A stretch of 63,785 nucleotides of DNA, filler included, from Collodictyon triciliatum (lineage: Eukaryota): assembly GCA_043381765.1 (NCBI GenBank). It is 16 parts of 16 records of this genome, joined end to end, with 100 filler letters (N's around TTAATTAATTAA, not from the genome) between each part and the next. Parts side by side here need not be neighbours in the genome. Positions count along the whole stretch, not along the records: positions 7,991 to 11,885 come from JBHJMP010006745.1; 15 more parts are not named here. The stretch is one strand, 5' to 3'. The notes beneath the pieces are model-generated. The model did not search any database, had not been told where the DNA came from, and saw only the letters and a list, made by a program, of their open reading frames with translations. Below, piece after piece: positions 8,031 to 63,000 of the stretch. Positions within the stretch are counted from its first letter, which is position 1. Every line of letters starts with the position of its first letter. Made by a program: the position numbers and the translations under genes.

Positions 8031-8096
8031 AACAATAAACTCATTTTCTTTGAATCGAATAAAGGAAGAAAAAAAAAAACAATAAACTCATTTTCT
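8031..8096 (+). mobile_element. Ultra-short retroposed insert (8050-8077) flanked by a 19-bp target-site duplication
   Basis: aacaataaactcattttct [ttgaatcgaataaaggaagaaaaaaaaa] aacaataaactcattttct. Confidence 0.8.
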
Positions 8097-9159: not shown

Positions 9160-9233
9160 TGGTTTTGCCCAGGATCGAACTGAGGACCTCCCGCATGTCA
9201 AGCGGATGTGATAGCCAACTACACCACAAAACC
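9160..9233 (-). tRNA. tRNA-Val, anticodon GAC
   Basis: Reverse complement GGTTTTG TG GTGTAGTTGGCTATCAC A TCCGC TTGACAT GCGGG AGGTC CTCAG TTCGATC CTGGG CAAAACC A folds as a full cloverleaf with A and B boxes. A short T run follows. Confidence 0.92.
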
Positions 9234-10974: not shown

Positions 10975-11170
10975 TTTTTTTTCCTTTATTCGATTCAAAG
11001 TGTAGCGAGGTTATGCCATACAAAAGGGCGGGATGGGAGCGCATGGGAGAGAGCAAACGCGAGTAGGGGAAGACCCTACCGTGGAGAGGGTAGCACTGGA
11101 AAGAAGTCAGTGATAGCGACTTGGTCAGGTGGGCGTCCCAACTGGTTGATTGGTTGCGTGGGCAGCAGGG
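10975..11170 (-). mobile_element. 5'-truncated 3' end of a LINE-like element, copy 1
   Basis: Clearly alignable with 15541-15729. On the minus strand it ends in CTTTGAATCGAATAAAGG followed by an A tail. Confidence 0.8.
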
Positions 11171-11505
11171 AACAACAACAGAGAAATAGCAAATATATAT
11201 ATATAAAGGAAAGGTTTTCGATTCTCTATTTTCAGAAAGTTGCAAGTTCTATCCACACAACTGGTTATTTGCTTATTCCCTATTTACTTGCAATATATAG
11301 GTGATACATATTATTAATAATTTTGGTTTATACTATTTTCATCGATTTACAACCAATATTTCGTCTTTAGCTCTATTTGTTATCTAAAGCAAGATATTGA
11401 TTAAATTCCACATGACTAAATAAATGTATATTTTGAACCCATTTGAATAAATACTGAAGATAATTATTTCAATCTTTCTCGGTCGATTAAAAATAAGGGG
11501 AAGAT

Positions 11506-11565
11506 TACAAATAAAACGAGAATTTTTTCCCTTTATTCGATTCGAGGTACAAATAAAACGAGAAT
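11506..11565 (-). mobile_element. Ultra-short retroposed insert (11524-11547) flanked by an 18-bp target-site duplication
   Basis: tacaaataaaacgagaat [tttttccctttattcgattcgagg] tacaaataaaacgagaat. The insert reverse complement is CCTCGAATCGAATAAAGGGAAAAA. Confidence 0.8.
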
Positions 11566-13599: not shown

Positions 13600-14870
13600 G
13601 TAGCTTGCCTTCACGATTCACCGAGCAAGTGTTGAAGTACTCTGTTCCCCTGGGTGCACAAAATTGTAACACCTCGTTAAAACGAAAGGTGCCAACAAGA
13701 GAACTCAATTTAGTCAGTCGGTAGTTGATGCACATACCTTTCGACTTAATATCAAGACGAATTAAATAATAGTATAATAATACTTTTGATACAGTACGAA
13801 CGACAGACGTGCTGTCCAGTAATAATTAGTAAGTATCCCTATTGGTCTAGTCAATCGGTTAGGACGCCAACTTGACGAATCTGCGGCTTTGAATTTCTTC
13901 TGGTACAGCTTCCTTGCAGGAACGTTTACTACTCATGCTTGCTCTTTACCAAGCACGCCATTTATCTCCCCTTGTACTGCCATGTACTCATGCGGTCTGA
14001 ATAAAGGAAAATGTGCGTGTGTGCTGCCTCCTCTCTCAGAAAACTATTTTTGATAGATTATGTTAGCTATTATAAAATATGTGACCGCAAAACTGAAGTA
14101 AAATGTAAAGGTCTTAGATTGATTTTGACCCTTCGGGGCTTAACACACTTACCTTCGTTCTATTAGTACCCTCCTCTATCCGTCATGCTAATGAGTTCGT
14201 GCTTAAAGGAAAGTATAAATAATGGTAAAAAGGGTTGTGTGTAGAGTAATAGACACATATCAAAATAGCTGGAAGGACGAGTTAATGGAAACCAAGTCTT
14301 CATAAAATGAAATAGACACTGGAGGGGTGTAGGAGACATGGCGTTGTGCAAGCGGAAGGTTGAAATGTTGTGGTGGCAGTACAGATCATAACATTGACCT
14401 TCGGAGTCACAGAGTCTGTATGTTCAGAGTAAGCTTTCTTGGAGTTCAGGCTATGGACTACATTGTTACTATCTAGTACCCTTTGACCTTTGCAATGTGA
14501 AACAACGGACCGCAAGATACTAATTGCTGGTCCAGTGGTATTTACCTACTATAAAATAAAAACGGTGCAATACATATTCAGGGGAGATAAAGAAAGTAAC
14601 GATGCGGTATTTAATATCACTAGACTTACTAAACTGTGTTTATAATTAAAATGTAGGCACCAAGAGGACGTATGCAGCAATTTGATACCCTGCAGCCCAG
14701 CTTGCACGGAGCAAAAGCCTGGGACTGACCTCTAGAATGTTTGTAAGTTTCTTAAACATGATAAAATGTTGAGTTGAAATGGGGGCGTCGAAATATGAAC
14801 CCGGCGATGGAATCTAGAAATTTATTTGATTTTTCGAATGACTCCATCGAACTAATCGTCTTGTGTGGAA
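13600..14870 (-). pseudogene. Heavily decayed non-LTR retrotransposon remnant (RNase H plus possible CCHC finger)
   Basis: Frameshifted motifs appear in the expected order: ISxDGSF (~14845), SVQAGLQGI (~14700), HIAKVKG/DSNNVVHSL (~14480), then C..FC...TE.LQHLLGE (~13640). Confidence 0.5.
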
Positions 14871-15978: not shown

Positions 15979-17443
15979 AAAGCAAGGCTCGTTACAATTC
16001 CAGTGTGTCCACTTAATGTTCTAATTAATCTTCCATCAGATATGTTGGTAATTTTTATTGTTTCATCGCTACTTCCTGATATAACACTAGTTCCATCCGT
16101 TGTGGTTACAAGACAGTATATGGACTCACTATGGACCAAGAATGATTTGATCAAAGACCCGTCGTCAACATTCCAAACTTTAATCGATTTGTCATTGCTT
16201 CCAGAAATTACTTTGGAGCTATCTGGTGATAGTATTAATGTGTTAACGACATCTGTATGTCCAATTAATGTCCTGATTAAATTGCCATTTAACAGATTCC
16301 ATATCCTAATGATATTATCTGAATGCCCTGATATTGTTATTGATTTCGATTGAGACGAAGTTATGCTTGAAATTCTAGAGCCTCTTGAGTATATAAGAGA
16401 TCCATCAGAAAGATTCCAAAGTCTTACAGTTCGGTCATGGCTTCCAGAAATAATTTTTGAGCCATCAGGGGAGACGAAAACACTCAATACACGATGTAAA
16501 TGACCAGTCAATGTGAGAATCAAACCTCCATCGGAAATATTCCAGATTTTTATTGTACTGTCCCAACTTCCAGAAACAATTTTTGAACTATCAGGAGTAA
16601 GAAAGGTACTCTCGACTCTCGATGAGTGGCCAGTCAGTGTGCGAATCAAAGTTCCATCAGAAAGATTCCAGATTTTGATTGTTCTATCATCACCACCAGA
16701 AACAATTTTTGAGCCATCAGTAGTTATAGCAACACTCCAAACCCAATTAGTATGACCAGTCAATGTGCGAATCAAAGTTCCATCAGAAATATTCCAAATT
16801 TTGATTGTAGTATCCCAACTTCCAGAAACAATTTTTGAACCATCAGGAGAAACAGAAACACTCCTAACAGTACTAGTATGACCAGTTAATGTGCGAATCA
16901 AAGCTCCATCAGAAAGATTCCAGATTTTGACTGTATTATCCCAACTTCCAGAAACAATTTTTGAATCATCTGTAGAAGCAGCAACAGTGTAAACCCCACT
17001 TGTATGACCAGTCAATGTGCGAATCAATGCTCCATCAGAAAGATTCCAAATTTTGATAGTATAATCCCAACTTCCAGAAACAATTTTTGTGGAGTCATAT
17101 GTTACAGCAACACTAGTAACATCATTACTATGACCAGTCAATGTCCTAATTAATGCTCCATCGAAGAGATTCCAAATCTTGATAGTTTTGTCTAAGCTTG
17201 CAGATATTATATTCGAGCCATCAGGCGAAATTGTAACACCACGGACAAGGTCTATGTGACCTGTTCCAACAGTGTAAATCGATGATACTTGCCCTTTAAC
17301 AGGACACAATTGGCAGTGAAGCATCAATCCTAAAATTATATTATTAAAATTCTATGTAATTTGTAGTCAATAAAATTAAAACAAATAATTTGTAACTCAC
17401 CCAACAGCAACAGAGCTGCAAACGACTTTGAGTTCAATCTCAT
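15979..17443 (-). CDS. Signal-peptide-bearing WD40-repeat protein, 3'-partial (exon 1 17443-17401, exon 2 17329-15979)
   Basis: Splicing gives MRLNSKSFAALLLLGLMLHCQLCPVKG-QV, followed by about 11 WD40 repeats of 42 aa/126 bp (LIRTLTGHxxxVxSV...DGSKIVSGSxDxTIKIWN). Confidence 0.92.
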
Positions 17444-20193: not shown

Positions 20194-23100
20194 TTAAAGA
20201 GATGTTGCAGTATCAGCAAAATCCATCATTTCATTTCTTTTTTTCATCGATTCCCATTTTTTTCTCATGTAATTGATGGCAGACGATTTCACCACGGCTT
20301 CATAAATTGGCTCTACAAATCTTTCTATTTTACCCAAGAAAGACACAAGCAAAGCAGGCCCAGCTTTCATTAAAGATACTGCTGCAATCATTCCGTTCAA
20401 CATAACAACCAGTGCCACAAGAAAATATTCGGAAAATAAACTTAGTTCTGTAAATCTAAATAAAAGACTTGTCATCAAGGTAAAGTAAAGGACCGATATT
20501 GAGTAAAGCTGTGACTTCCTGAGCACTTTGGAAATAAATGGCTTGAAATAAAGCGATGATGCAATCGTCAATAAAAGTAACCATAAGCCAAAGTAAATTT
20601 GCAAGGCTGATGAAAAGAAAATGGTTATCAGAACAACAAGCAGTTTTTGCATCATAGTCACGATTTCCCAGTAAAAACATTCTTCAGTGTATCCATCAAC
20701 CAAAAATCGGAGTAAGTTGTAAGTACTTGAAGCCGGATCAATCAGTGATGACCTTTTGTAAAACATATATGCAGCGAGAATAAACGGGCCACCAAAGCAA
20801 TACAGAATCACGTAAACAAGAGCAATATTTTTCCAAATGAGGTAAGTCGCATCATCACACATTATTGACATGTCAGCCATCAGGAAAATTTCATCACCAA
20901 ACCTCTCGCAACGGAAGATGTTTGATATTGACGACATAATCGTGGGATGAACAAAAAATAGCATAACCATCATGGAAAAAATAAACTCTTGGTTGATTTT
21001 GAAGAAAGTAACATCTCTGCTATTGATTTGATTGGTTCTTAATTTCCAAACTATTTTGGCTGTAACTATAAAAAGAATCACTCCTATCAGAATCAAAGGG
21101 GTTATCATTGAATACAAAACCTTATCATATATTGTCATTTCAAATCTGCATTCCATGGGATACGTGTCTATTGATAACGAAAAGGAAAAGAGAGCTGGTA
21201 TTTTCATTATTGAGAGTATGGCGGAGCTCCAGTCGACATCAAAGTTCGCTAGATATGACAAAACTTGGAAATGGGATGCAAGTGTTTTTAGAATCTGTAT
21301 TTTAGTTGTCTTTGGTTGTCTTGATTGCTCTATCATGAAAAAAACAAATAATAGCGGTGCTGCAATACTTAGGAATACTAGAAACCCGCTCGTTCCTTGG
21401 TTGGGGCATTTAGTGCAATAAACACCGGTTTTACCAAATCCCTTTTCACAAACACTGCATAAAGCTCCGGTATATCCTGTCGCACATGTGTTGTTTCCTC
21501 CTTTACAAGCATCTTCATTTAGGCATTTGTAAGCTATGTATTTTCCATTTGATGTTGATGCTTTCCAATATCCTGGTGCGACACTAGGTTTAATGCTTCC
21601 ATCACAGATAAAACCTGTTGGACAATCTATGCATTTCTGAGTCTTTGCCTCGAGATATGTAGATGGAAGACATTTGCAATCTGAAAAATATTCTGATGCA
21701 GTCATATTTGTAAATGAATTTATTGGGCATTTTTCGCAAAATGTTTGTCCATAATTTTCGTTGTAAGTGCCTGGTGGGCATTCATAGCAGTTCTTCTGCT
21801 TTTCATACCATCCAGGTTTGCATTCACAAGTAGAATTTCTGAGATCAAATCCATTGCTGCAGACACAATCGGTTGAAGTAATCGAGCCATTATTTTTTGT
21901 CGTAAACTTATCTCCGCATGAAAGGCAGAAATTTGTGTCGTGTGTTGACTTGTATGAACCTATTCTGCAAGGAACACATTTATTGCTATCCTCAAATTGC
22001 CCGGGAGGGCATGTGCAGGCACCATTGAATGATATATAGGAATCTATACATTTGCACTCATAGATTGATTTGGAACCCTCTTTAATTGTGGTTGAGCGTG
22101 TGGGACATAATGCACATGATGCGCTTCTCTGTGGACTGTAGCTCCCTTTTGAACATTCAATGCATGATGATTTGTTGAATGAACCAGTTTTGTTGTTGAA
22201 TGTACCAGCTGGGCACGATAAACATTCATCTCTTTGTTCATTTCCATACGTTCCTTGTGGACACTCAATACATGATGCCTTGTTTGTTGAGCCAAATCTT
22301 GGATTGTATGTTCCGTCAGTACAATTTTTGCACCCATTTTGACCAAGATTTGGATTGTAAGAACCAGGTTGGCAAAGCTCACATGTTGATTCACCCGATT
22401 TTGATGAAAATCTTCCTTGTGGGCACGGCTGACAGTTGCTTATGCTGGTTGATGCAACATTTGGATTATAAGTCCCAGCCGAACATTTTTCGCAGGTGAT
22501 TGATTTTGTTTTGTTTGAGTAAGTGCCAGTAGAGCACGGATTGCAAAATTGCTTTCCTTTCTCATTCATGAAAAATCCAGCAGGACAATCAAAACAACTC
22601 GACTTTCCATCAACGCTATTGTATGTTCCTGGTTCACATAAAAGACAGGACGAATTTCCAGCACCTCTAATGCTTGTACTGAACGTTCCTGCTGGGCATG
22701 GTCTACAAGACCTATATCCCTCATCGCTGTAAAATCCGGCAGTACAGTTGTTACATATTACTTGCCCATTAAGATTATTGAATGTCCCAGCCTCGCATTT
22801 CTTGCAAATTGATTGGCCCACAAGATTATTGTATGACCCTTCCTCACATAGAAGACAATCTTTAAGACTTGTTGAACCAGTTGATGGGTTATAAGTTCCA
22901 GTTGGGCATAGTAAACAAGAGGTGAGCTCATTTCCATTATTGTAAGAACCAGTTGGACATTTCTCGCATGCATTTGATTGTTGATTGAAAAAGTATCCTC
23001 CTTGGCATGGACTCCATACTTTGATAAATGTGTCAGAGCTCGCTGAAATTATTTTCGAATCAATAGTAGCAAATACACCATTTACAGTATTGGTGTGACT

Positions 23101-23916
23101 GAAAAGCGTCCGAACCTCCCGTCCATCTGACATTGTCCATATTTTTACTGATTTATCACTGCTTGCAGAATAGATTTTAGTTCCATCAGATGTCACTGAA
23201 ATGCTATTGACTGAGCTTGTGTGTCCTGTTAGAGTTCGAATTAACAAGCCATCTGACATGTTCCAAATTTTGATTGTGTTATCGCTGCTTCCAGAGATAA
23301 TTCTTGTCCCATCTGGAGATGATATAACACATCTGACAGCATTTCCATGACCGGTTATGGTTCTGAGTAATGCTCCATCAGACATATTCCATACTATTAT
23401 TGAAAAATCAGAACTTCCTGATATAATTTTTTTATTATCTGGAGTGATAAAAACAGAATTCACTCCCTTTGTATGACTCGATAAGGCTCTAATTATGATT
23501 CCATCTGAAACCCTCCAAACATTTATATTCATGTCATCACTTCCTGATACTATAACAGAACTATCTGGTGATATAGCAACGCTTCGAATAGCTGCAGTAT
23601 GTCCACTGAATGTTTTTAATAGTAAACCATCTGAGAAATTCCAAATTTTTACCGTCTTGTCGCTGCTTCCTGAGACGATATTTTTTCCATCTGCCGAAAC
23701 AACAACACAATTCACAGCACTTGTATGGGCATTTATCGAAAGAGCTTGAGAACCATCAGCATAATACCAGATTCTTACTGTGTTATCACTACTTCCTGAC
23801 ACAATTTTTGATTTATCTGGGCTCAAATAAACGCTATTCACTGTACTTGTGTGACCTGAGACTGTCAGAATCAAGCTGAAATCAGGAAAATTCCACATTT
23901 TAATTGTTGTGTCATC
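20194..23916 (-). CDS. WD40 repeats + Cys-rich (GCC2/GCC3, ephrin-receptor-like/TNFR-like) repeats + multipass membrane domain; intronless, 5'-partial
   Basis: The open frame exceeds 1234 aa. It holds 7 WD40 repeats, many CxxCPxGTY/F units, CxxGYTGALCSVC, then about 8-9 hydrophobic segments with FQVL, HPTI, FRC, ADMSIxC and YWEIV. Confidence 0.92.
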   Translation of the reverse strand, partial: DDTTIKMWNFPDFSLILTVSGHTSTVNSVYLSPDKSKIVSGSSDNTVRIWYYADGSQALSINAHTSAVNCVVVSADGKNIVSGSSDKTVKIWNFSDGLLLKTFSGHTAAIRSVAISPDSSVIVSGSDDMNINVWRVSDGIIIRALSSHTKGVNSVFITPDNKKIISGSSDFSIIVWNMSDGALLRTITGHGNAVRCVISSPDGTRIISGSSDNTIKIWNMSDGLLIRTLTGHTSSVNSISVTSDGTKIYSASSDKSVKIWTMSDGREVRTLFSHTNTVNGVFATIDSKIISASSDTFIKVWSPCQGGYFFNQQSNACEKCPTGSYNNGNELTSCLLCPTGTYNPSTGSTSLKDCLLCEEGSYNNLVGQSICKKCEAGTFNNLNGQVICNNCTAGFYSDEGYRSCRPCPAGTFSTSIRGAGNSSCLLCEPGTYNSVDGKSSCFDCPAGFFMNEKGKQFCNPCSTGTYSNKTKSITCEKCSAGTYNPNVASTSISNCQPCPQGRFSSKSGESTCELCQPGSYNPNLGQNGCKNCTDGTYNPRFGSTNKASCIECPQGTYGNEQRDECLSCPAGTFNNKTGSFNKSSCIECSKGSYSPQRSASCALCPTRSTTIKEGSKSIYECKCIDSYISFNGACTCPPGQFEDSNKCVPCRIGSYKSTHDTNFCLSCGDKFTTKNNGSITSTDCVCSNGFDLRNSTCECKPGWYEKQKNCYECPPGTYNENYGQTFCEKCPINSFTNMTASEYFSDCKCLPSTYLEAKTQKCIDCPTGFICDGSIKPSVAPGYWKASTSNGKYIAYKCLNEDACKGGNNTCATGYTGALCSVCEKGFGKTGVYCTKCPNQGTSGFLVFLSIAAPLLFVFFMIEQSRQPKTTKIQILKTLASHFQVLSYLANFDVDWSSAILSIMKIPALFSFSLSIDTYPMECRFEMTIYDKVLYSMITPLILIGVILFIVTAKIVWKLRTNQINSRDVTFFKINQEFIFSMMVMLFFVHPTIMSSISNIFRCERFGDEIFLMADMSIMCDDATYLIWKNIALVYVILYCFGGPFILAAYMFYKRSSLIDPASSTYNLLRFLVDGYTEECFYWEIVTMMQKLLVVLITIFFSSALQIYFGLWLLLLTIASSLYFKPFISKVLRKSQLYSISVLYFTLMTSLLFRFTELSLFSEYFLVALVVMLNGMIAAVSLMKAGPALLVSFLGKIERFVEPIYEAVVKSSAINYMRKKWESMKKRNEMMDFADTATSL

Positions 23917-25111: not shown

Positions 25112-27305
25112 ATGAGTACTCCACGTGACTCTTCAGCGTAAGCGAATCAATTCTACTTTCGCTATACTCTCATATTTATCTAACTTTTTTTTTATTGAAA
25201 AAATATCAAAGATTCAATAAGTAATTATTCAAGACATCTGTGTTCGTGTATGTGAATATGAGCTGTACCCTTCGCAATATCTAATCTCTTACATAACGTA
25301 AAATTATAAAATTGTCTTTGAATAGGCGTCGTGTGGTCGACTCCGCACAAGGTATTATTTCCATCGCTTATCTTTTATATCATGGTATACTTTTTCACAG
25401 ACTTTATGATATGCTTGTGATTTGAGTTTTGTATAAAGTTTGAAGTTTGAAGGGTACGCTTCCGTTTTCAATCACACACATCATTACGAGAATTGAACGC
25501 TTTCTCTATGCAGCCATTATGTTGAGCCAGTTCCCATCAATTCCGCTCAACTTCTCGTTTGCAAACTCACCCGGACAGCCGCATACTCAGAATCACTTGT
25601 CAATTTATGATGGGCAGGTTAATGAGATTATGCCGCATGAGGAAGGAAACGTGGAAAAGCGCTCCAAAAGGTAGAGTGAATATACGTATTCACTATAATA
25701 ACATATATTTTTGCTGTATTCTCTCGAAAACCTCTTTGCATTTGAGAAGAACACTAAAAGGGATAATCAAGCGTGCCAAGAAAGTATAAGCATTCAAATT
25801 ATTCCGCCAGATTGGAAAAGAACAGAGAGTCCGCACGGCAGTGCCGCAGAAGGAAGAAAGAATACATTACAACTCTCGAAGAACGTGTTTCCGAGCTAAC
25901 ACAGCGAATCCAGGAACTGCAACAAAAGTATTGGTACACAAAAGAGAAACTCACCGAAGAGCAGCGCAAGGTGGCTATTGAGCTCAGTGGCATAGCTCAA
26001 GTCCCCAACAAGGAGCGTGATTGCGCCGTCCTCTTATCGCGCTTCTCAGACATCTGCTACAAGCAAGGAACAGCCGCCATCATCTACCACTTGGACCAAC
26101 TGAAGGAGCTCTTGATTCCGGCGCAGCAAGTCAAGTTTGTTCTGTGGGGTCTAGACCAAGGCGATGAGTTTTATGAGAGCAACGGCCGCGATGCGGATAG
26201 TGGTACCATATGGTCAGTTCTCTCGAAAGAGATTGGATGGACTGCTGAGCAAGGCGAACAGCTCAAGCGGATGCGCGAGATTGTGCACAGAGAAAACAAA
26301 GAGATAGCAGCTTCCATCTTGCAAGTGGAGGCGCTTCGCTCGAACATGTGCACCCGTCTCGAAAGCATCCAAAGGTCAATCAACGAAATCAGAAATCTCT
26401 TCACGCCCCAGCAGCAGGCAAAGTTTGTTGTATGGGTTGAGCAAAATTCGGCTGTAATGAAGATGCTAAACACCATAGGAACCCATACCTGGCTTCCTGA
26501 AATCCACAGTGGTACAAGAACTGACCCGACGACCGAGATGGCTGCTCATCAACCCCATTCTCATCTCCAACCACCACAGCAGCATATGAAAATGAATTCC
26601 TCATCCAATATCCCACCTGTGGAATCTCAGCTGCCCATAAGCGCAAGCGATTCCACTGAGCCCCAAACCAAACCTGTCGCGCCGGCTAACACTGCACATC
26701 TTCAACCTCCGACTTCAGCAATCAAGCCAAAGGGTAGAGCGAAGCCCCCGCCAAGCAACATTAATCATGGACACCGCCAGCATTACCAGCAGCAACAACA
26801 AAGTTATGCTAGGGGTTTGCCTCGTCCCCTTGCCCAATTAGGCGACCCACACAACCCGGCACATATGGACGAGCACGTTTCGTATCAAAATCCACTGCAA
26901 GCCCAATTGCAATCCCATATGCAGTCACAGATTCATCAAAGCTTGCAAAATCTCTCCGCACTGTCTTCAGCAAACTATCCAAATGCTGCTGGACACATGA
27001 TTTCGGTGCTCGGGAATCATCAAATGCAAAGTCAGGCGCGTCCTTCTGCCCCTCAGTCAACCGCAGCGGTGCCCTATCAAAATGGGGTGTTTGGTCTCTC
27101 TGAGAATCAGAGCAAGACTTACGATTCCTACAAGCACAAAGGAATGGCTCATTTAAATAGAAGTGGTCAGAGCATCGCCCCGTGCAGAGCACCAGACTCC
27201 CATAACATAGATTCATCCATCATGTCTCGATCAACTGTCGATTCAAGTTCAGAGAGTGATGATGAGGATGACATGAATGAGGAGTTGGAAGATTCTGAAA
27301 AATGA
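25112..27305 (+). CDS. bZIP transcription factor (exons 25112-25137, 25326-25351, 25514-25670, 25811-27305)
   Basis: KRSKR|LEKNRESARQCRRRKKEYITTLEERVSEL forms the basic region and zipper. A helical domain (QQVKFVLW...TPQQQAKFVVWV) and a Q/P/S-rich tail follow. The exons splice in frame with GT-AG. Confidence 0.92.
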
Positions 27306-48393: not shown

Positions 48394-48476
48394 ATCATTG
48401 TAAACATTTTTTTTAAAAAAAAATGTTTGCAACAATTGCAATATCATTACATACAAATTAATTTATTGCTCATAAC

Positions 48477-51404
48477 ATGGATGCATTTTTACAAGAGAGA
48501 ATAAAGTTTAACGGAAGTACTTTAGATTTTGTAAAACAGAAGTTATCAAAAGGAACAGGAACTTTAAAAATAGATGCACTTCTGGCATTACCAGGATTTG
48601 ATACTCTTTCAAGAAAAGCAAGTAACACTAACTTTTTATTAAATTGGATAGCACAAATAAGATATGGCACTTATGAAAGAGCTAATTTAGTTATTAACCA
48701 ATTTATCGCTGCTAATCAAAATGATCCTAATGCAATATCTGCATTTGTACGGGATGAATGGGGTAATGCTAGATTAGATAAAGATACTCTTCTCAGAAAC
48801 GTAGCGACGACCATGGACGTAGAAATTGCAAGAAGGCAAAGTATCGGTGAATTGCCCCTATACCCCTCTGCTGCTCCTACTGTTGCTCCTGCTCCCGCTG
48901 CTCCCGCTGTCCCAATCTTTGCCGCTGCAAATCAATTAGAATATGGAACTGCAGAGGATTACAAAAGAGCCGTCAAAGAAATAAATGGCGTCTTGCCAAC
49001 TGGAAAAGCCAATCTAAGAGATCTAAATAAGTGGCAGGAAATATTAAATAGTGTTCGACAAACACGAGCTCAATTAATTGCAGAAATACAACAAGCCTAT
49101 CCAAGAGGCGACCCAAATGAGTACATGGACAAAAATAATAAAGAGTTGACACAATTTATAAAACTATTACCTGCTATTAAGGACGAACAACAGGATCCAA
49201 GTCTAGCACCTGGTCCAGTATTTGGACCTCAAAGTCCGGCACCTCAACCAGCCCAATCTGCTGCTAAACAACCAGCTCAACCTCAACCTCAACCTCAAGC
49301 AGGTTCTGATAATGATACATATGAAATTCCTGTTCTAGGGTTGACTAATCTAAATAAAAGATTAATAAAGTATATCTATGTCATTTTATATAAAAATAGA
49401 AACTTTCCGGAAGTTTTACAACGAATGCAAGATCAAAATAAAAAATATCAATATATCACTTATTGGTTGAACTTCATTTTTCATTATTATGGAAGTCAGG
49501 ATCCTACTTTTATTGATAATGCCCGACGAGACATAGTAGAAAGAACTGCTGTTTTACCAAGTAGGTACAAAATGCCTATGCAACTTTATGATATGAGTGA
49601 CATCACTCCTCAATTAGAAAGTGACATACTAAAAACTCATGCTTTGGCTATTCAAATGCCATTGGATCAAAAGACTATTCCAGTAACTCTTACAGAAAAT
49701 GCTCAGGGGGTATTTGATGAAAATACTATAGATGTTAACATGACTGGAGAAATTCGGCCTGCTGCAAGTCCAGCTATTCAAAGACAAGGCAGCTTTTTAG
49801 CGGCTGTTGCAACTAGCCCCATTATGCCTATTGCAATTCCAACAACAACAACACCCGCTAGACCTACTCCTGGCCCAATTGCACAAAGTGGAACTAGACC
49901 TCCTAGACCTCCTATAACCCCCGGGCCTGCTGCTGGGCCGGCATTTGCTACTCCGGTTATTCAAAGGTCTAGACCAGCAGCAGGCCAACAAAATCTAATT
50001 TCTCCACCTGACCCAAATGCAAGCGTTGCTGATGCGTCGTTTGTTTCTGCTCAATCGAATATTCCTAGCCCTATAGATACGTCTGTCCCTGTACAATTGG
50101 GACCAGGTGCTTTTCAGCTATCTGACTTGGCTCAAGCAAATGCACATATTGCTGGACTGCATAATCAAATAGGTCTAAAAGATGTTGAAATTGCGAATAT
50201 GCAAGCTGTTGTTCAACAGGAAAGAAGAGACGCACAAATCGCTACAAATCTAGTTGAGCGACTTACAAATGAAAATGATGCATTAACACTAGAAAGTGCA
50301 GCTCTTCAGAATGAACGTGATACTTTGACAACTCAAAGGGACGCTTTACAGGCTGAACTGGATAATGTAAAAGCCGCATTGGAACAAAATGAAGAGACAC
50401 TAGAAACTATTACTAATCAAAGAAACCAATTTCAGGAAGAAAGAGATACATTGTTACAACAAATAAATCAAATTCGAGCATCAAATCAACAAGCAGTATT
50501 TAATACAACCGAGCGGGCTAAAACACAAATTCAAGAAAGAGATGCACGTATACAAGAACTTGAGACAGAGATAGAAAGACTACAAGGTGAAAATGAAACA
50601 CTAACAGATGAAAAAAATAATTTAGAAGCTCAACTTTTGGAGATTACCCAACAATTAGAAAATGCAGTTCAAGGTAATCTGCAATTACAACAACAAATTC
50701 AACAACAGAATGCACAAATGGGCAACCAACAAACTGAAATAGATAGACTCAATGGATTAATGAGAGAGTATCACAATTTAGCTCAAAGAACACAGACAGA
50801 TCTACAAAATCAATTAACGGAATTACAGGGTGATTTTGATACTGCTGTAAATAATTTAAATGAAGAGAAAAACATGGTAGGAAGAAGAAATAATATGATT
50901 ATACAACTTCGAGAACAATTAGCTAGAGCTGAAGCATCGGCAGAACAAGGAGGTAGAAAGACCTTTTCGGATTTACGAAGAGAACAGGAGTTACGAGCAA
51001 GAGCTGAAGCACTTTATGCCGAAACAGATCGTATAGCTCAAAGAATGATTGAAATGAATGAACAAGAAATAGAAAGACTAAAAGCCGTTATCGCTCGTAG
51101 GCGACAAGAAAATGACGATTTAGTTTTAAGGTTAGCAAATGAGAATAGACAAAGTACTGATTTGACCCGACAATTAGAAAGAAAGGATGAAGAAATTGCT
51201 GAACTAAATATTGAATTAGCTGCATTACATAAACGCAATGATGACATAGTTATAGAAATGAATGAAAGAATAGCCGCATTAACAGGCGGACCAGATTGGG
51301 AAGACGTTGATGATCCATCTAAACAAAAGAAAAATCTTAGTAATGATATGCCACCAAAAAAAATATCCGAGATCTTGCAAAACAAGATAGAGCTAAGTTG
51401 TTAG
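48477..51404 (+). CDS. Large intronless hypothetical protein with Pro/Ala-rich linkers and a long coiled coil
   Basis: 975-aa ORF with consistent A/T-ending codon bias and a heptad-like E/Q/L-rich region of about 380 aa. Confidence 0.85.
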   Translation: MDAFLQERIKFNGSTLDFVKQKLSKGTGTLKIDALLALPGFDTLSRKASNTNFLLNWIAQIRYGTYERANLVINQFIAANQNDPNAISAFVRDEWGNARLDKDTLLRNVATTMDVEIARRQSIGELPLYPSAAPTVAPAPAAPAVPIFAAANQLEYGTAEDYKRAVKEINGVLPTGKANLRDLNKWQEILNSVRQTRAQLIAEIQQAYPRGDPNEYMDKNNKELTQFIKLLPAIKDEQQDPSLAPGPVFGPQSPAPQPAQSAAKQPAQPQPQPQAGSDNDTYEIPVLGLTNLNKRLIKYIYVILYKNRNFPEVLQRMQDQNKKYQYITYWLNFIFHYYGSQDPTFIDNARRDIVERTAVLPSRYKMPMQLYDMSDITPQLESDILKTHALAIQMPLDQKTIPVTLTENAQGVFDENTIDVNMTGEIRPAASPAIQRQGSFLAAVATSPIMPIAIPTTTTPARPTPGPIAQSGTRPPRPPITPGPAAGPAFATPVIQRSRPAAGQQNLISPPDPNASVADASFVSAQSNIPSPIDTSVPVQLGPGAFQLSDLAQANAHIAGLHNQIGLKDVEIANMQAVVQQERRDAQIATNLVERLTNENDALTLESAALQNERDTLTTQRDALQAELDNVKAALEQNEETLETITNQRNQFQEERDTLLQQINQIRASNQQAVFNTTERAKTQIQERDARIQELETEIERLQGENETLTDEKNNLEAQLLEITQQLENAVQGNLQLQQQIQQQNAQMGNQQTEIDRLNGLMREYHNLAQRTQTDLQNQLTELQGDFDTAVNNLNEEKNMVGRRNNMIIQLREQLARAEASAEQGGRKTFSDLRREQELRARAEALYAETDRIAQRMIEMNEQEIERLKAVIARRRQENDDLVLRLANENRQSTDLTRQLERKDEEIAELNIELAALHKRNDDIVIEMNERIAALTGGPDWEDVDDPSKQKKNLSNDMPPKKISEILQNKIELSC

Positions 51405-52325: not shown

Positions 52326-52380
52326 AAAAAAAAAATTGGTGCGATCTTTGAATCGAATGAAGGAAAAAAAATGGTGCGAT
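52326..52380 (+). mobile_element. Ultra-short retroposed insert (52346-52371) with a target-site duplication
   Basis: aaaaaaaaaattggtgcgat [ctttgaatcgaatgaagg] aaaaaaaatggtgcgat. Confidence 0.75.
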
Positions 52381-60016: not shown

Positions 60017-63000
60017 GGAGCATTCCAAATTTCAGTGGTATACTGGGTATCCTTGAAATAAACCTGTCATCCAATCAACTAGGCGGTATGAATATGCTCT
60101 AGTTTATATATTTTCCTTTTTTAATTTCATCTTTTCCCTCTTAGCCTTTCTTTCATTTTTATTTTTACCATTTTGTGTTTTCTGTTCTTCCTTTTATCTT
60201 TTCATATTCATTACGTATGTTTTATTTAATTTATATTATTAAAATTCAATACAATAAAGGATCAATCCCAAGTTTTGATAATCTCCCGAACTGCGAAACG
60301 ATTGACCTATCGAACAACCAATTGATAGGTGATAATTTTGATGTAATTTTTATAACCAAGAATAATTTTTTGATACATTCTATTTTCTTGCTCAAGAATT
60401 TTTGTATATAAAAAATAGGCACAATATCAGATTCTTTGAATCTTACTGGGGTTCATGTTATTGATTTTTCTGACAATAAATTGTCAGGTAAGTGCATTAT
60501 ACTCCTTGATTCAACTTCATATGCTTTTTTATTTTTCAAGTTGATACTCCTTTCTTTCATAGGAACTATTCCAAACTTCAGTGGGTTACCAATTATCGAA
60601 ATTATAGTATTATATTACAACACTTTAAAAGGTTTGTATTTTTTATCGCAACGCGATTTTTTCTAAATTTACCTGATTAATATAAAAGCATTTGAATTTT
60701 AAAATATTTTAATAAACTCAATTTGGGCTTAGGAAATATTCCAGACTTTATAAATATACCAAACTTAGTTGAGATGCATTTGTACGGAAATCAACTTAAT
60801 GGTTGTTTGATTCAATTTCTCTAATTTGTCTCAAAATATTGAAAATTTTATTTTATTTCTTGTTGCGCTGTAACAAGTCTAATATGATTTTACAGGAACT
60901 GTCCCTGATTTTTCTAATCTGAAGAATCTGTTCGGGCTATTTATTCCAAAGAATCAGATAGAAGGTGATACTCATATCAAGAATTATGCGCCCCTGTATT
61001 TTACATTATAATAGTGATTGATTTGTGGTTTTGAAAAATAGCTCTAATTCAAAATATAGGCACTATCCCAAACTTTACAAGTCTCTTAAGGCTCGAATAC
61101 TTTTATGCATTCGATAATAATTTGAAGGGAAGTATCCCTAGTTTTGAGAACTGTCCGTCCATGCATGAGATCGAGAAAGATAGCAATACATTGGACGGCT
61201 CGTTGCCTTCACTGGATTTATGTTCGCTAGTGTCCATTGACGTAAGCGAAAAAGAAATAGCAGGCTCTATTCCATTCAATTGGAACATACCAAATATTGA
61301 GTACATTTATTTGTCATTCAATTCATTGGAAGGGGACGTACCCACCAATTTCGGAAATTTCGAAAACTTGATACATCTTGACCTATCACATAATCAAATC
61401 TCTGGAAGTATGCCAACAAGATTATGGAATCTCCCAAAGCTTGTAACGATTGATTTGAGAAACAATTCATTTAATGGAGAAGTTAGTTCATTTATCATCG
61501 ATTTCAACGGAAATCAAGAGTATTACTTTGAAAATCTTATTCTTGATGACAATAATTTCTTTGGAGAGGTAAATTGGAAGTTTTTTGAATTTTTTGAAAA
61601 CCTCAAGACCTTCAGTTTGAGAAATAATCGAATCGAAAGACTTGAGGAGCCAGGGGTTCCAATAAGTTGGATTAAATTCGATGTCAGTGGAAATCCTGTG
61701 GCTGGAAGCATTCCCGAATCATATAGCCGTTTTTTATTCATCGAATACTTTGGACTGCAAAATACATACATGAATCACGGGACTTCAAATTTTATTCCTT
61801 CATTCATGAATCAAACAAGCACATACACTCTAGAGAAGGTATCCGACGCTTTTACATGTCCCTCTATTGTTACTATTTTGGGGTCAGTAGAAACCAAGGT
61901 TGATATGAATCCAGAGTACTTTAGCTACGGACTTTGTAAATGCCTCCCAGGATATTTTGGATTCGGAAATAAGTGTGTTGAATGTCCCAAGGAGTGTGAT
62001 TGTCGAGACAGAATATCTTTAAAAAAGTGCTTTTTTACTCCTACAGTCACAAATATTGTGGATATAGTTCCTTGCATGAATCCAGAAATTTGCACATTCG
62101 ATATTGATAACTCTATGGAAATGAGAATGGAAGTGTATAATGGTACTTTTGTTTTCCCCTGCAAAGAGGGATACACAGGAAGGAGCTGTTCTACCTGTGC
62201 AGAGGGTTATCTTTTTGATAGTGGGGAGTGCAACCTGTGCTCTTCTGATTATTCAACTCTCAAGATTATCGCATTTGTCGTAGCTCTCTTTTTTGGCATC
62301 TTGTATCAAGTGGGAGCAGCTTGGATTGGGGAAAGTACACAAGAGGATGAGGAAAGCGTACCAGATGACGAGGAAGTTCAAGAACAAGATTCAGGTATAC
62401 CAAACATATAATTATAATATTTCAAATTTTCTAATTTTTTTTATTTTGCGCAGCTTCCGTGGATATTTTCTTATTTTACACTCAGATTCTTCAAATTCTG
62501 GGAAATATTGTAACTATACCAGATATCAACATTGCTGGCAAATTTGTTGGTAATGTTTTTTCGCTCAAGCTACCAACTCTTGAATGCATCGTCGGTAATC
62601 ATCCCCATATCACGTCTCTTTTAAACTTGGCTCGTATACCTTCAATTCTCCTTATCGCTGTGCTGGGATTGAAGAAGTTTCTAGCGAATGGGGACAAAAG
62701 AAATGTTGAAAAGGTACTGAACATTCATTTTTTGTTTAAATTTATTTAAGTTGCGATAAAGGATTCAGTTTTAATACATATATTCTACGCTTTTTTTAAA
62801 ATATTAATATTGAGAGCAACCATCCAAACCTATAGGTGGTGGCAGTTATGTTCATTTTTTTGGAAGGTACTTACTTTTCCGTAGCCCAAGATGTCATAAG
62901 CACCTTCGGATGCACTCTATACGATAAAGGGTTTGAAAAATGGTTTGTGAACACGTACCCATGGATTCAGTGTGACCCTGTGACAGACAGCTATGCTAAA

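Follow-up and report, generated by a model that had tools for sequence, protein, structure and literature searches.

Three loci in the window analysed here (the whole stretch of DNA, 63,785 bases in length) consist only of the terminal 16-18 nt of a LINE and an A-tail. These mini-inserts lie at 8050-8079 on the plus strand, 11523-11547 on the minus strand and 52346-52371 on the plus strand. They are flanked by perfect direct repeats of 17, 17 and 9 bp, respectively, and the repeats are different at each site. An origin of the mini-inserts by target-primed reverse transcription (TPRT) is well supported: they are LINE tails, and the 5′ breakpoint that they share hints, from three cases, at a fixed stop of the reverse transcriptase (RT). 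Our main reading, to which we give a probability of roughly one half, is that TPRT of an L1-type LINE was ended by arrest of the RT at the 3′ foot of a hairpin, a sequence-set point 18 nt into the element.

The window is made up of 16 size-ordered contigs of about 3.9 kb, one of which has an internal gap of 508 N. Contigs are separated by N44-TTAATTAATTAA-N44 spacers, and the real sequence amounts to about 62 kb. The G+C content of the window is 37%. Most of the contig ends consist of a homopolymer or a simple repeat, as is seen when a short-read assembly is fragmented.

The structures of the three sites are as follows (TSD, target-site duplication; negative numbers count LINE bases back from the A-tail).

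8033-8049, plus strand: site 1, 5′ TSD of 17 bp, CAATAAACTCATTTTCT; the CT at its end fits LINE bases −18 and −17 just as well (2-nt microhomology).
8050-8079, plus strand: site 1, insert, TTGAATCGAATAAAGG followed by AAGA11; LINE 3′UTR bases −16 to −1 are 8050-8065, and the tail AAGAAAAAAAAAAA is 8066-8079.
8080-8096, plus strand: site 1, 3′ TSD, identical to 8033-8049.
11548-11564, minus strand: site 2, 5′ TSD (in element orientation) of 17 bp, TTCTCGTTTTATTTGTA.
11523-11547, minus strand: site 2, insert, an 18-nt variant of the LINE tail, CCTCGAATCGAATAAAGG (11530-11547), then G and A6 (11523-11529).
11506-11522, minus strand: site 2, 3′ TSD, identical to 11548-11564.
52337-52345, plus strand: site 3, 5′ TSD, 9 bp exact, TGGTGCGAT; the A10T before it may belong to it.
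52346-52371, plus strand: site 3, insert, the 18-nt LINE tail CTTTGAATCGAATGAAGG (52346-52363), then A8.
52372-52380, plus strand: site 3, 3′ TSD, the exact 9-bp repeat TGGTGCGAT.

An earlier note on this DNA had described an 18-mer with an A-tail between direct repeats at three sites on two contigs. All three sites are present as described, and they lie on contigs 3 and 14. The repeat length of about 15-19 bp given in that note holds for sites 1 and 2 (17 bp each), but the exact repeat at site 3 is only 9 bp. The site 3 repeat can be extended to about 17-20 bp, with one indel, if the A-run preceding the 5′ copy is counted. Likewise, the AATAAA that had been read in the unit is present in two of the three mini-inserts, but site 3 has AATGAA.

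We searched the window for further copies. The 14-nt motif GAATCGAATRAAGG occurs four times against an expectation of 0.04, and four occurrences were reached in none of 100 shuffles. When a 22-mer was searched with up to three mismatches, the same four places were found (0.00 expected). The fourth of these corresponds to the 3′ end of a longer copy (copy A, 10975-11000 on the minus strand), which bears out the claim that the same 18-mer ends a longer copy at 10975. Other structures with poly-A, a TSD and a short insert were absent from the window both in a generic direct-repeat scan and in a scan for A-runs with direct repeats. Thus, the three mini-inserts are the only recognisable fresh retro-insertions in about 62 kb, and they are best read as young insertions. 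A weak extra motif match at 13997-14011, which has no TSD, was taken as chance (0.58 expected).

Fragmentary assembly raises the question of whether the three loci arose by retroposition at all. They might be artefacts of short-read assembly, or filler DNA at repaired double-strand breaks, and many of the 3.9-kb contigs do end in simple repeats. However, three independent loci each carry a different perfect duplication of 9-17 bp that abuts an oriented tail and an A-run, and the sequences that flank the mini-inserts are unique within the window. End-joining filler is not known to create 17-bp target duplications. We therefore give this explanation almost no credit.

Two longer pieces of the parent element are present in the window.

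10975-11172, minus strand: copy A, a 5′-truncated LINE, comprising the terminal 32 codons of ORF2 (about 11079-11172), the stop codon TAG (11076-11078), a 93-nt 3′UTR (10983-11075) and A8 (10975-10982).
15543 to about 15834, minus strand: copy B, a LINE fragment of greater age with a degenerate tail; over 190 nt it shares 85% identity with copy A.

The 18-mer is the last 18 nt of copy A and also of a metagenome copy, L036, which is about 96% identical to copy A. L036 reaches more than 1 kb upstream of the tail. Its upstream frame matches zf-RVT ("zinc-binding in reverse transcriptase", Pfam PF13966) with an E value of 1.5e-7 and a score of 32.4 bits against a cut-off of 27.5. With this domain in L036, and with the C-terminus of ORF2, the stop codon and the 93-nt UTR in copy A, the copy that had been called LINE-like proves to be the tail of a real LINE. 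Copy A is 5′-truncated, because metagenome loose ends beyond 11170 continue into the sequence of copy B and L036. Relative to L036, copy B has lost an internal stretch of about 330 nt that separates the zf-RVT region from the end portion of ORF2. Copy B corresponds to the zf-RVT region in its upstream part and borders on a (GAAAAA)n repeat where the contig ends. It is either a derivative formed by internal deletion or the product of decay. No TSD was found for copies A and B, and the mini-inserts are the only LINE copies in the window that have one.

L036 came from a metagenome scan with the 3′-tail pattern, which gave at least 119 loci. It is the only true copy among the 119 loci listed, and no mini-insert is among them. 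The other listed loci are chance matches in unrelated DNA, with the exception of L005. Positions 300-720 of this unrelated metagenome contig are a tandem repeat of about 59 nt, not a mini-insert; L005 mimics a mini-insert with a 40-bp duplication because one repeat unit contains the motif by chance. The tail pattern had only chance matches in the collections of prokaryote genomes and of viruses (5 and 3, respectively), and a LINE-specific 23-mer was found in neither (0 and 0).

The metagenomes also bear on the abundance and habitat of the element. Summed metagenome depth in the two bins of the element is 453 and 149 (X1) and 263 and 151 (X2), values that are not copy numbers. In every other bin, depth is at most 15 (X1) or 29.3 (X2), and it is 0 in many. 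Because of this depth, and because the sequence beyond the A-tail is heterogeneous in the metagenome contigs, we take the element to be a dispersed repeat with many copies. Difference-free matches to unique parts of contig 3, of 267 nt (X1) and 240 nt (X4), occur in freshwater or lake metagenome contigs. From these matches, the source would be a freshwater microbial eukaryote or its very near relative. The sequencing runs that match the region, with shares of 0.17 or less, are all freshwater, lake or subsurface metagenomes, and no RNA run is among those listed.

The L1 clade is marked by an APE endonuclease, an RT and a C-terminal Cys-His domain in one ORF2, by poly-A and by TSDs of about 7-20 bp. 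In the present element, the A-tail, the TSDs and zf-RVT are present. The recovered part is the C-terminus of ORF2, and the RT and endonuclease domains are seen in remote relatives only. These relatives came from an exhaustive HMMER search, which gave 14 matches, four of them long (1226-1275 aa, 29-38% identity); a word-based protein search found no longer relatives. In Pfam, all four long relatives have RVT_1 and Exo_endo_phos, and three of the four have zf-RVT below the cut-off. As judged from these predicted domains, the combination of APE endonuclease, RT and zf-RVT in the remote relatives is the L1-type ORF2 layout. The shorter relatives P0002 and P0007 have a C-terminal ...ITDFF... ending in common. 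The parent is therefore best read, by sequence comparison, as a putative L1-type, poly-A LINE of a freshwater microbial eukaryote.

The anatomy of the three sites carries the signature of TPRT, as had been claimed: an A-tail, perfect TSDs that vary from site to site, and a 3′ end that is co-linear with the longer element. The bottom-strand primers end in ...TTGTT, ...GAAT and ...T10. The terminal base is T in all three cases, and it can pair with the A-tail. Severely 5′-truncated LINE copies with TSDs are ordinary, and the truncation of LINEs is usually treated as roughly random. For L1, the accessible part of one study (PMC4245944) describes TSDs close to 15 bp in length and 5′ junctions formed directly or through microhomology. 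As far as that part goes, the mini-inserts are like 5′-truncated insertions of the L1 type in their A-tail, their TSDs of about 9-19 bp, their T-ending primer sites and their 5′ overlap of 0-2 nt. Co-linearity with the 3′ end of the element, and a parent ORF2 with a C-terminal zf-RVT, are further points of likeness. In contrast to usual L1-type insertions, however, they hold only 16-18 nt of the element, below normal repeat annotation, and one breakpoint is common to all three.

Breakpoints were counted on the LINE tail ...GCTACA/CTTTGAATCGAATAAAGG. Site 3 begins exactly at C(−18), with an overlap of 0. At site 1 the breakpoint falls in the range 16-18, the CT at the end of the TSD being the same as bases −18 and −17. 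At site 2 the range is 18-19: 18 element bases are present, and the last base of the TSD, A, corresponds to −19. From these ranges (16-18, 18-19 and 18), it follows that the single base C(−18) satisfies all three breakpoints. We simulated the truncation with copies restricted to those that are detectable (at least 14 nt) and counted three breakpoints within 3 nt as the event. With geometric lengths, P was 0.0016 at a mean of 100 nt, 0.008 at 50, 0.037 at 30 and 0.07-0.18 at 25-20; with uniform lengths, it was 3e-5. P exceeded 0.05 only at a mean of 25 nt or less, and it stayed below 0.01 as long as the mean length of truncated copies was about 45 nt or more. Thus, a chance coincidence is unlikely unless nearly all integrations abort within a few tens of nucleotides. 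The near-identical start base pointed out in the earlier note was therefore borne out, in that all 5′ ends fit −18 and that this is improbable under most models of random truncation. With n=3, the shared breakpoint is suggestive, not established. Against a fixed stop, some LINE copies are truncated elsewhere, at about 195 nt (copy A) and at 38 nt (X1).

The exception named above is the basis of another explanation, in which there is no hot spot. The LINE would mostly abort within a few tens of nucleotides, and the equal lengths would be a small-sample coincidence, helped by the 14-nt detection floor. At a mean of 20-25 nt, the P value of 0.07-0.18 for three breakpoints within 3 nt agrees with this idea. 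A copy of 38 nt in X1 does so too, and copies shorter than 14 nt escape the motif. However, P is 0.008 or less when the mean is 50 nt or more, and all ends fit one base, not just a 3-nt range. Moreover, the other LINE lengths are about 195 nt (copy A), at least 290 nt and at least 1050 nt; a single short geometric distribution misfits these copies, so a two-component model would be needed anyway. We judge the absence of a hot spot to be rather unlikely.

Three X2 contigs start matching at 8042, and the sequence before this position is heterogeneous and non-LINE (agreement 0.6). They are perhaps additional short copies of the tail, located elsewhere in the genomes of environmental relatives. 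Among the X1, X2, X4 and X8 metagenome sequences (X8, raw reads, n=2), none bridges site 1 or site 2. A single joint, 8088>11188 (side 20), in the metagenome mapping was taken as spurious.

RNA structure was considered as a possible cause of the common breakpoint. The CTTT...AAAG stem-loop that had been proposed inside the 18-mer does not fold: the minimum free energy (MFE) of the 18-mer is 0 kcal/mol, and that of the 19-nt version from site 2 is −0.2, no better than shuffles. Folding of the last 66-78 nt of the UTR gave the following structure.

11000-11021, minus strand: predicted weak hairpin in the 3′UTR, GUAUGGC...GCUACAC, 6 pairs, from −39 to −18.

The mini-inserts start at C(−18), and this base forms the 3′ foot of the hairpin. 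The predicted fold is weak (centroid −4 kcal/mol, z-score 0.44). It has no compensatory changes in a three-sequence alignment, and two of its six pairs are broken in copy B. There was no Rfam match at gathering score in the window and none at E≤10 for copy A. With an MFE of 0 for the 18-mer, a weak upstream hairpin and no Rfam match, a stable conserved stem-loop of the stringent LINE type is absent. LINE reverse transcriptases usually read through such weak structures. The homology of the LINE tail copy in X1 (two contigs, a loose end) extends from the A-tail over about 38 nt, as far as 11020. This position is the 5′ foot of the hairpin, the opposite foot of which is the −18 breakpoint.

We infer the following order of events, along with what stopped the RT and what part the hairpin played. 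The endonuclease of the element would nick the bottom strand so that the primer ends in T, and the nick would prime on the A-tail of the LINE RNA. The cDNA would then cover only the last 18 nt of the 93-nt 3′UTR and halt opposite C(−18). The RT would be arrested at the 3′ foot of the hairpin (−39 to −18), which is presumably still bound by the element's own protein and may act as a template boundary. After the second strand is cut about 17 bp away, the short cDNA would join the upstream end with an overlap of 0-2 nt. The product would be a TSD, the 18-mer, an A-tail and the second TSD. A stop determined by sequence, as opposed to a random loss of processivity, is probable given that a single base fits all three breakpoints.

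The same DNA product would be formed if the template were already short, and the present data fit both possibilities. In this case, the LINE RNA would be cut or trimmed to a 3′ fragment starting at C(−18), and the RT would run off its end. Such a fragment could be produced by an endonuclease cut, or by 5′-3′ decay halted at a protein-protected 3′ end. The 5′ ends of all three mini-inserts are compatible with exactly −18 and an overlap of 0-2 nt, and a weak hairpin of 6 pairs is not expected to stop an RT. Furthermore, direct joining is the pattern reported, in the accessible part of PMC4245944, for cDNAs that reach the end of the template. On the other hand, no known ribozyme or RNA family matches the 3′UTR even at E≤10, and no cleavage motif was recognised. 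We regard a short template as possible, if on the unlikely side, and keep RT arrest at the hairpin foot as the main reading.

The mini-inserts, together with their first tail bases, have five differences from the LINE tail, and all of these are transitions (T>C twice and A>G three times). In contrast, all 43 bp of the TSDs are perfect in both copies. Among the variants listed for the metagenome contigs, none with a share of 5% or more in the LINE copies falls inside the 18-mer. Given the five transitions and the lack of a listed variant at this share, the source of the mini-inserts could be something other than the common LINE. Error-prone copying, RNA editing or an origin from rare source copies might explain the transitions.

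Another candidate source is an independent micro-retroposon: a master locus would make a short RNA with the LINE 3′ tail, and this RNA would be mobilised in trans as a tail-only SINE. The inserts have a 5′ end in common, as would be expected from such a locus, and the variants CCTC...GGG and AATGAA are absent from the listed common variants of the LINE copies. A SINE possesses an internal Pol III promoter or a head derived from tRNA, 5S or 7SL, and its 5′ end is the transcription start. However, a promoter cannot fit in 18 nt. No SINE head or promoter was found in the mini-inserts, which are 18 nt and a tail: they have no tRNA, 5S or 7SL head, Rfam gave nothing in the window at gathering score, and no tRNA lies at the sites. 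Because the three inserts differ among themselves, one master is argued against, and the window has no longer non-LINE copy bearing the tail. An independent micro-retroposon is thus very improbable.

Dependence on a LINE tail is known from other systems. LINEs of the stringent type have 3′ stem-loops, and some SINEs borrow the 3′ tail of a LINE (the UnaL2 3′ element in Rfam is an example). As in the SINEs that borrow a tail, a conserved 3′ terminal sequence is common here to the LINE and to short dependent copies. Unlike in stringent LINE/SINE pairs, there is no Rfam match (E≤10), the 18-mer is unfolded and the tail is poly-A instead of short tandem repeats.

Tailless retropseudogenes are a second class of short insertions with a defined end. 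Schmitz and co-workers reportedly described truncation hot spots in tailless retropseudogenes in 2004. In the accessible part of Noll et al. 2015 (PMC5322556), these elements are flanked by TSDs, have defined ends tied to RNA secondary structure and are made by the LINE machinery. They are described there as 3′-truncated, without an A-tail and derived from tRNAs, 5S, U2 and other RNAs, and they are explained by internal priming. So far as this account goes, the mini-inserts are like tailless retropseudogenes in being short, in being flanked by TSDs and in having a defined end. Unlike the elements in that account, all three mini-inserts keep the 3′ end and the A-tail, their defined end is the 5′ end, and their template is the UTR of the LINE itself. 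A full-text literature search, which left most subscription journals outside, gave no report of a fixed LINE truncation point at about 18 nt.

In telomerase, the template-boundary element is a TERT-bound helix just 5′ of the template, and it stops copying. By analogy, the LINE 3′UTR might work as a miniature telomerase RNA: a hairpin held by the RT would be the template-boundary element, and exactly the 18-nt tail and the A-run would be copied in a large share of attempts. We consider this extension doubtful. The likeness would be one of mechanism only, in that a related RT would copy a short fixed stretch ending at the foot of an adjacent helix. Unlike the telomerase system, there is no telomerase RNA or TERT here, binding of the helix is presumed, and the mini-inserts, instead of forming terminal tandem repeats, are single units at internal sites that depend on an endonuclease. 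If the template-boundary view is true, thousands of uniform "micro-retroposons" would be expected genome-wide, about one per 7-100 kb on this sample. They would be a distinct programmed output of the LINE, each with an AATAAA polyadenylation signal and missed by standard repeat annotation, and they would form a mechanistic bridge between reverse transcription by LINEs and by telomerase.

The main reading, RT arrest at a sequence-set point, has consequences of its own. If there is a sharp genome-wide peak at −18, a LINE RT can have a sequence-defined early termination point. A true peak at −18 would bear on why most LINE copies are 5′-truncated and on how LINE and telomerase enzymes define template boundaries. 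Repeat finders would then be missing a class of very short retro-insertions, and rates of retrotransposition would consequently be underestimated in such genomes. Each insert puts AATAAA (or AATGAA) beside an A-run and could create a polyadenylation site. If there is no peak at −18, the three loci would be ordinary, very short dead LINE tails.

The ORFs of the window look eukaryotic: they include WD40 repeats, a bZIP protein, LRR proteins and a DUF5690 tail. Pfam searches of the host ORFs gave only bZIP, LRR and DUF5690. A tRNA-Val gene (anticodon GAC) is present at 9160-9233 on the minus strand; site 1 is about 1.1 kb away and copy A about 1.7 kb. The contig that contains it is AT-rich (34.6% G+C) and carries three of the five LINE-derived pieces of the window. 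Long open frames with WD40 repeats lie at 15981-17351 and at 20197-23916, both on the minus strand and both on contigs of low G+C content. Beyond its WD40 part, the latter frame (1240 aa) holds a multi-pass membrane tail as well as numerous Cys-rich repeats. Parts of the same kind of gene may be present on the two contigs. Three further long frames, all on the plus strand, are intron-less. The first, at 25767-27302, encodes a bZIP protein of 512 aa (bZIP_1, E=1e-9), and the second, at 48462-51401, encodes a coiled-coil protein of 980 aa without a clear family. The third, at 61035-62408, encodes an LRR and Cys-rich protein, the best named relatives of which are plant LRR receptors.
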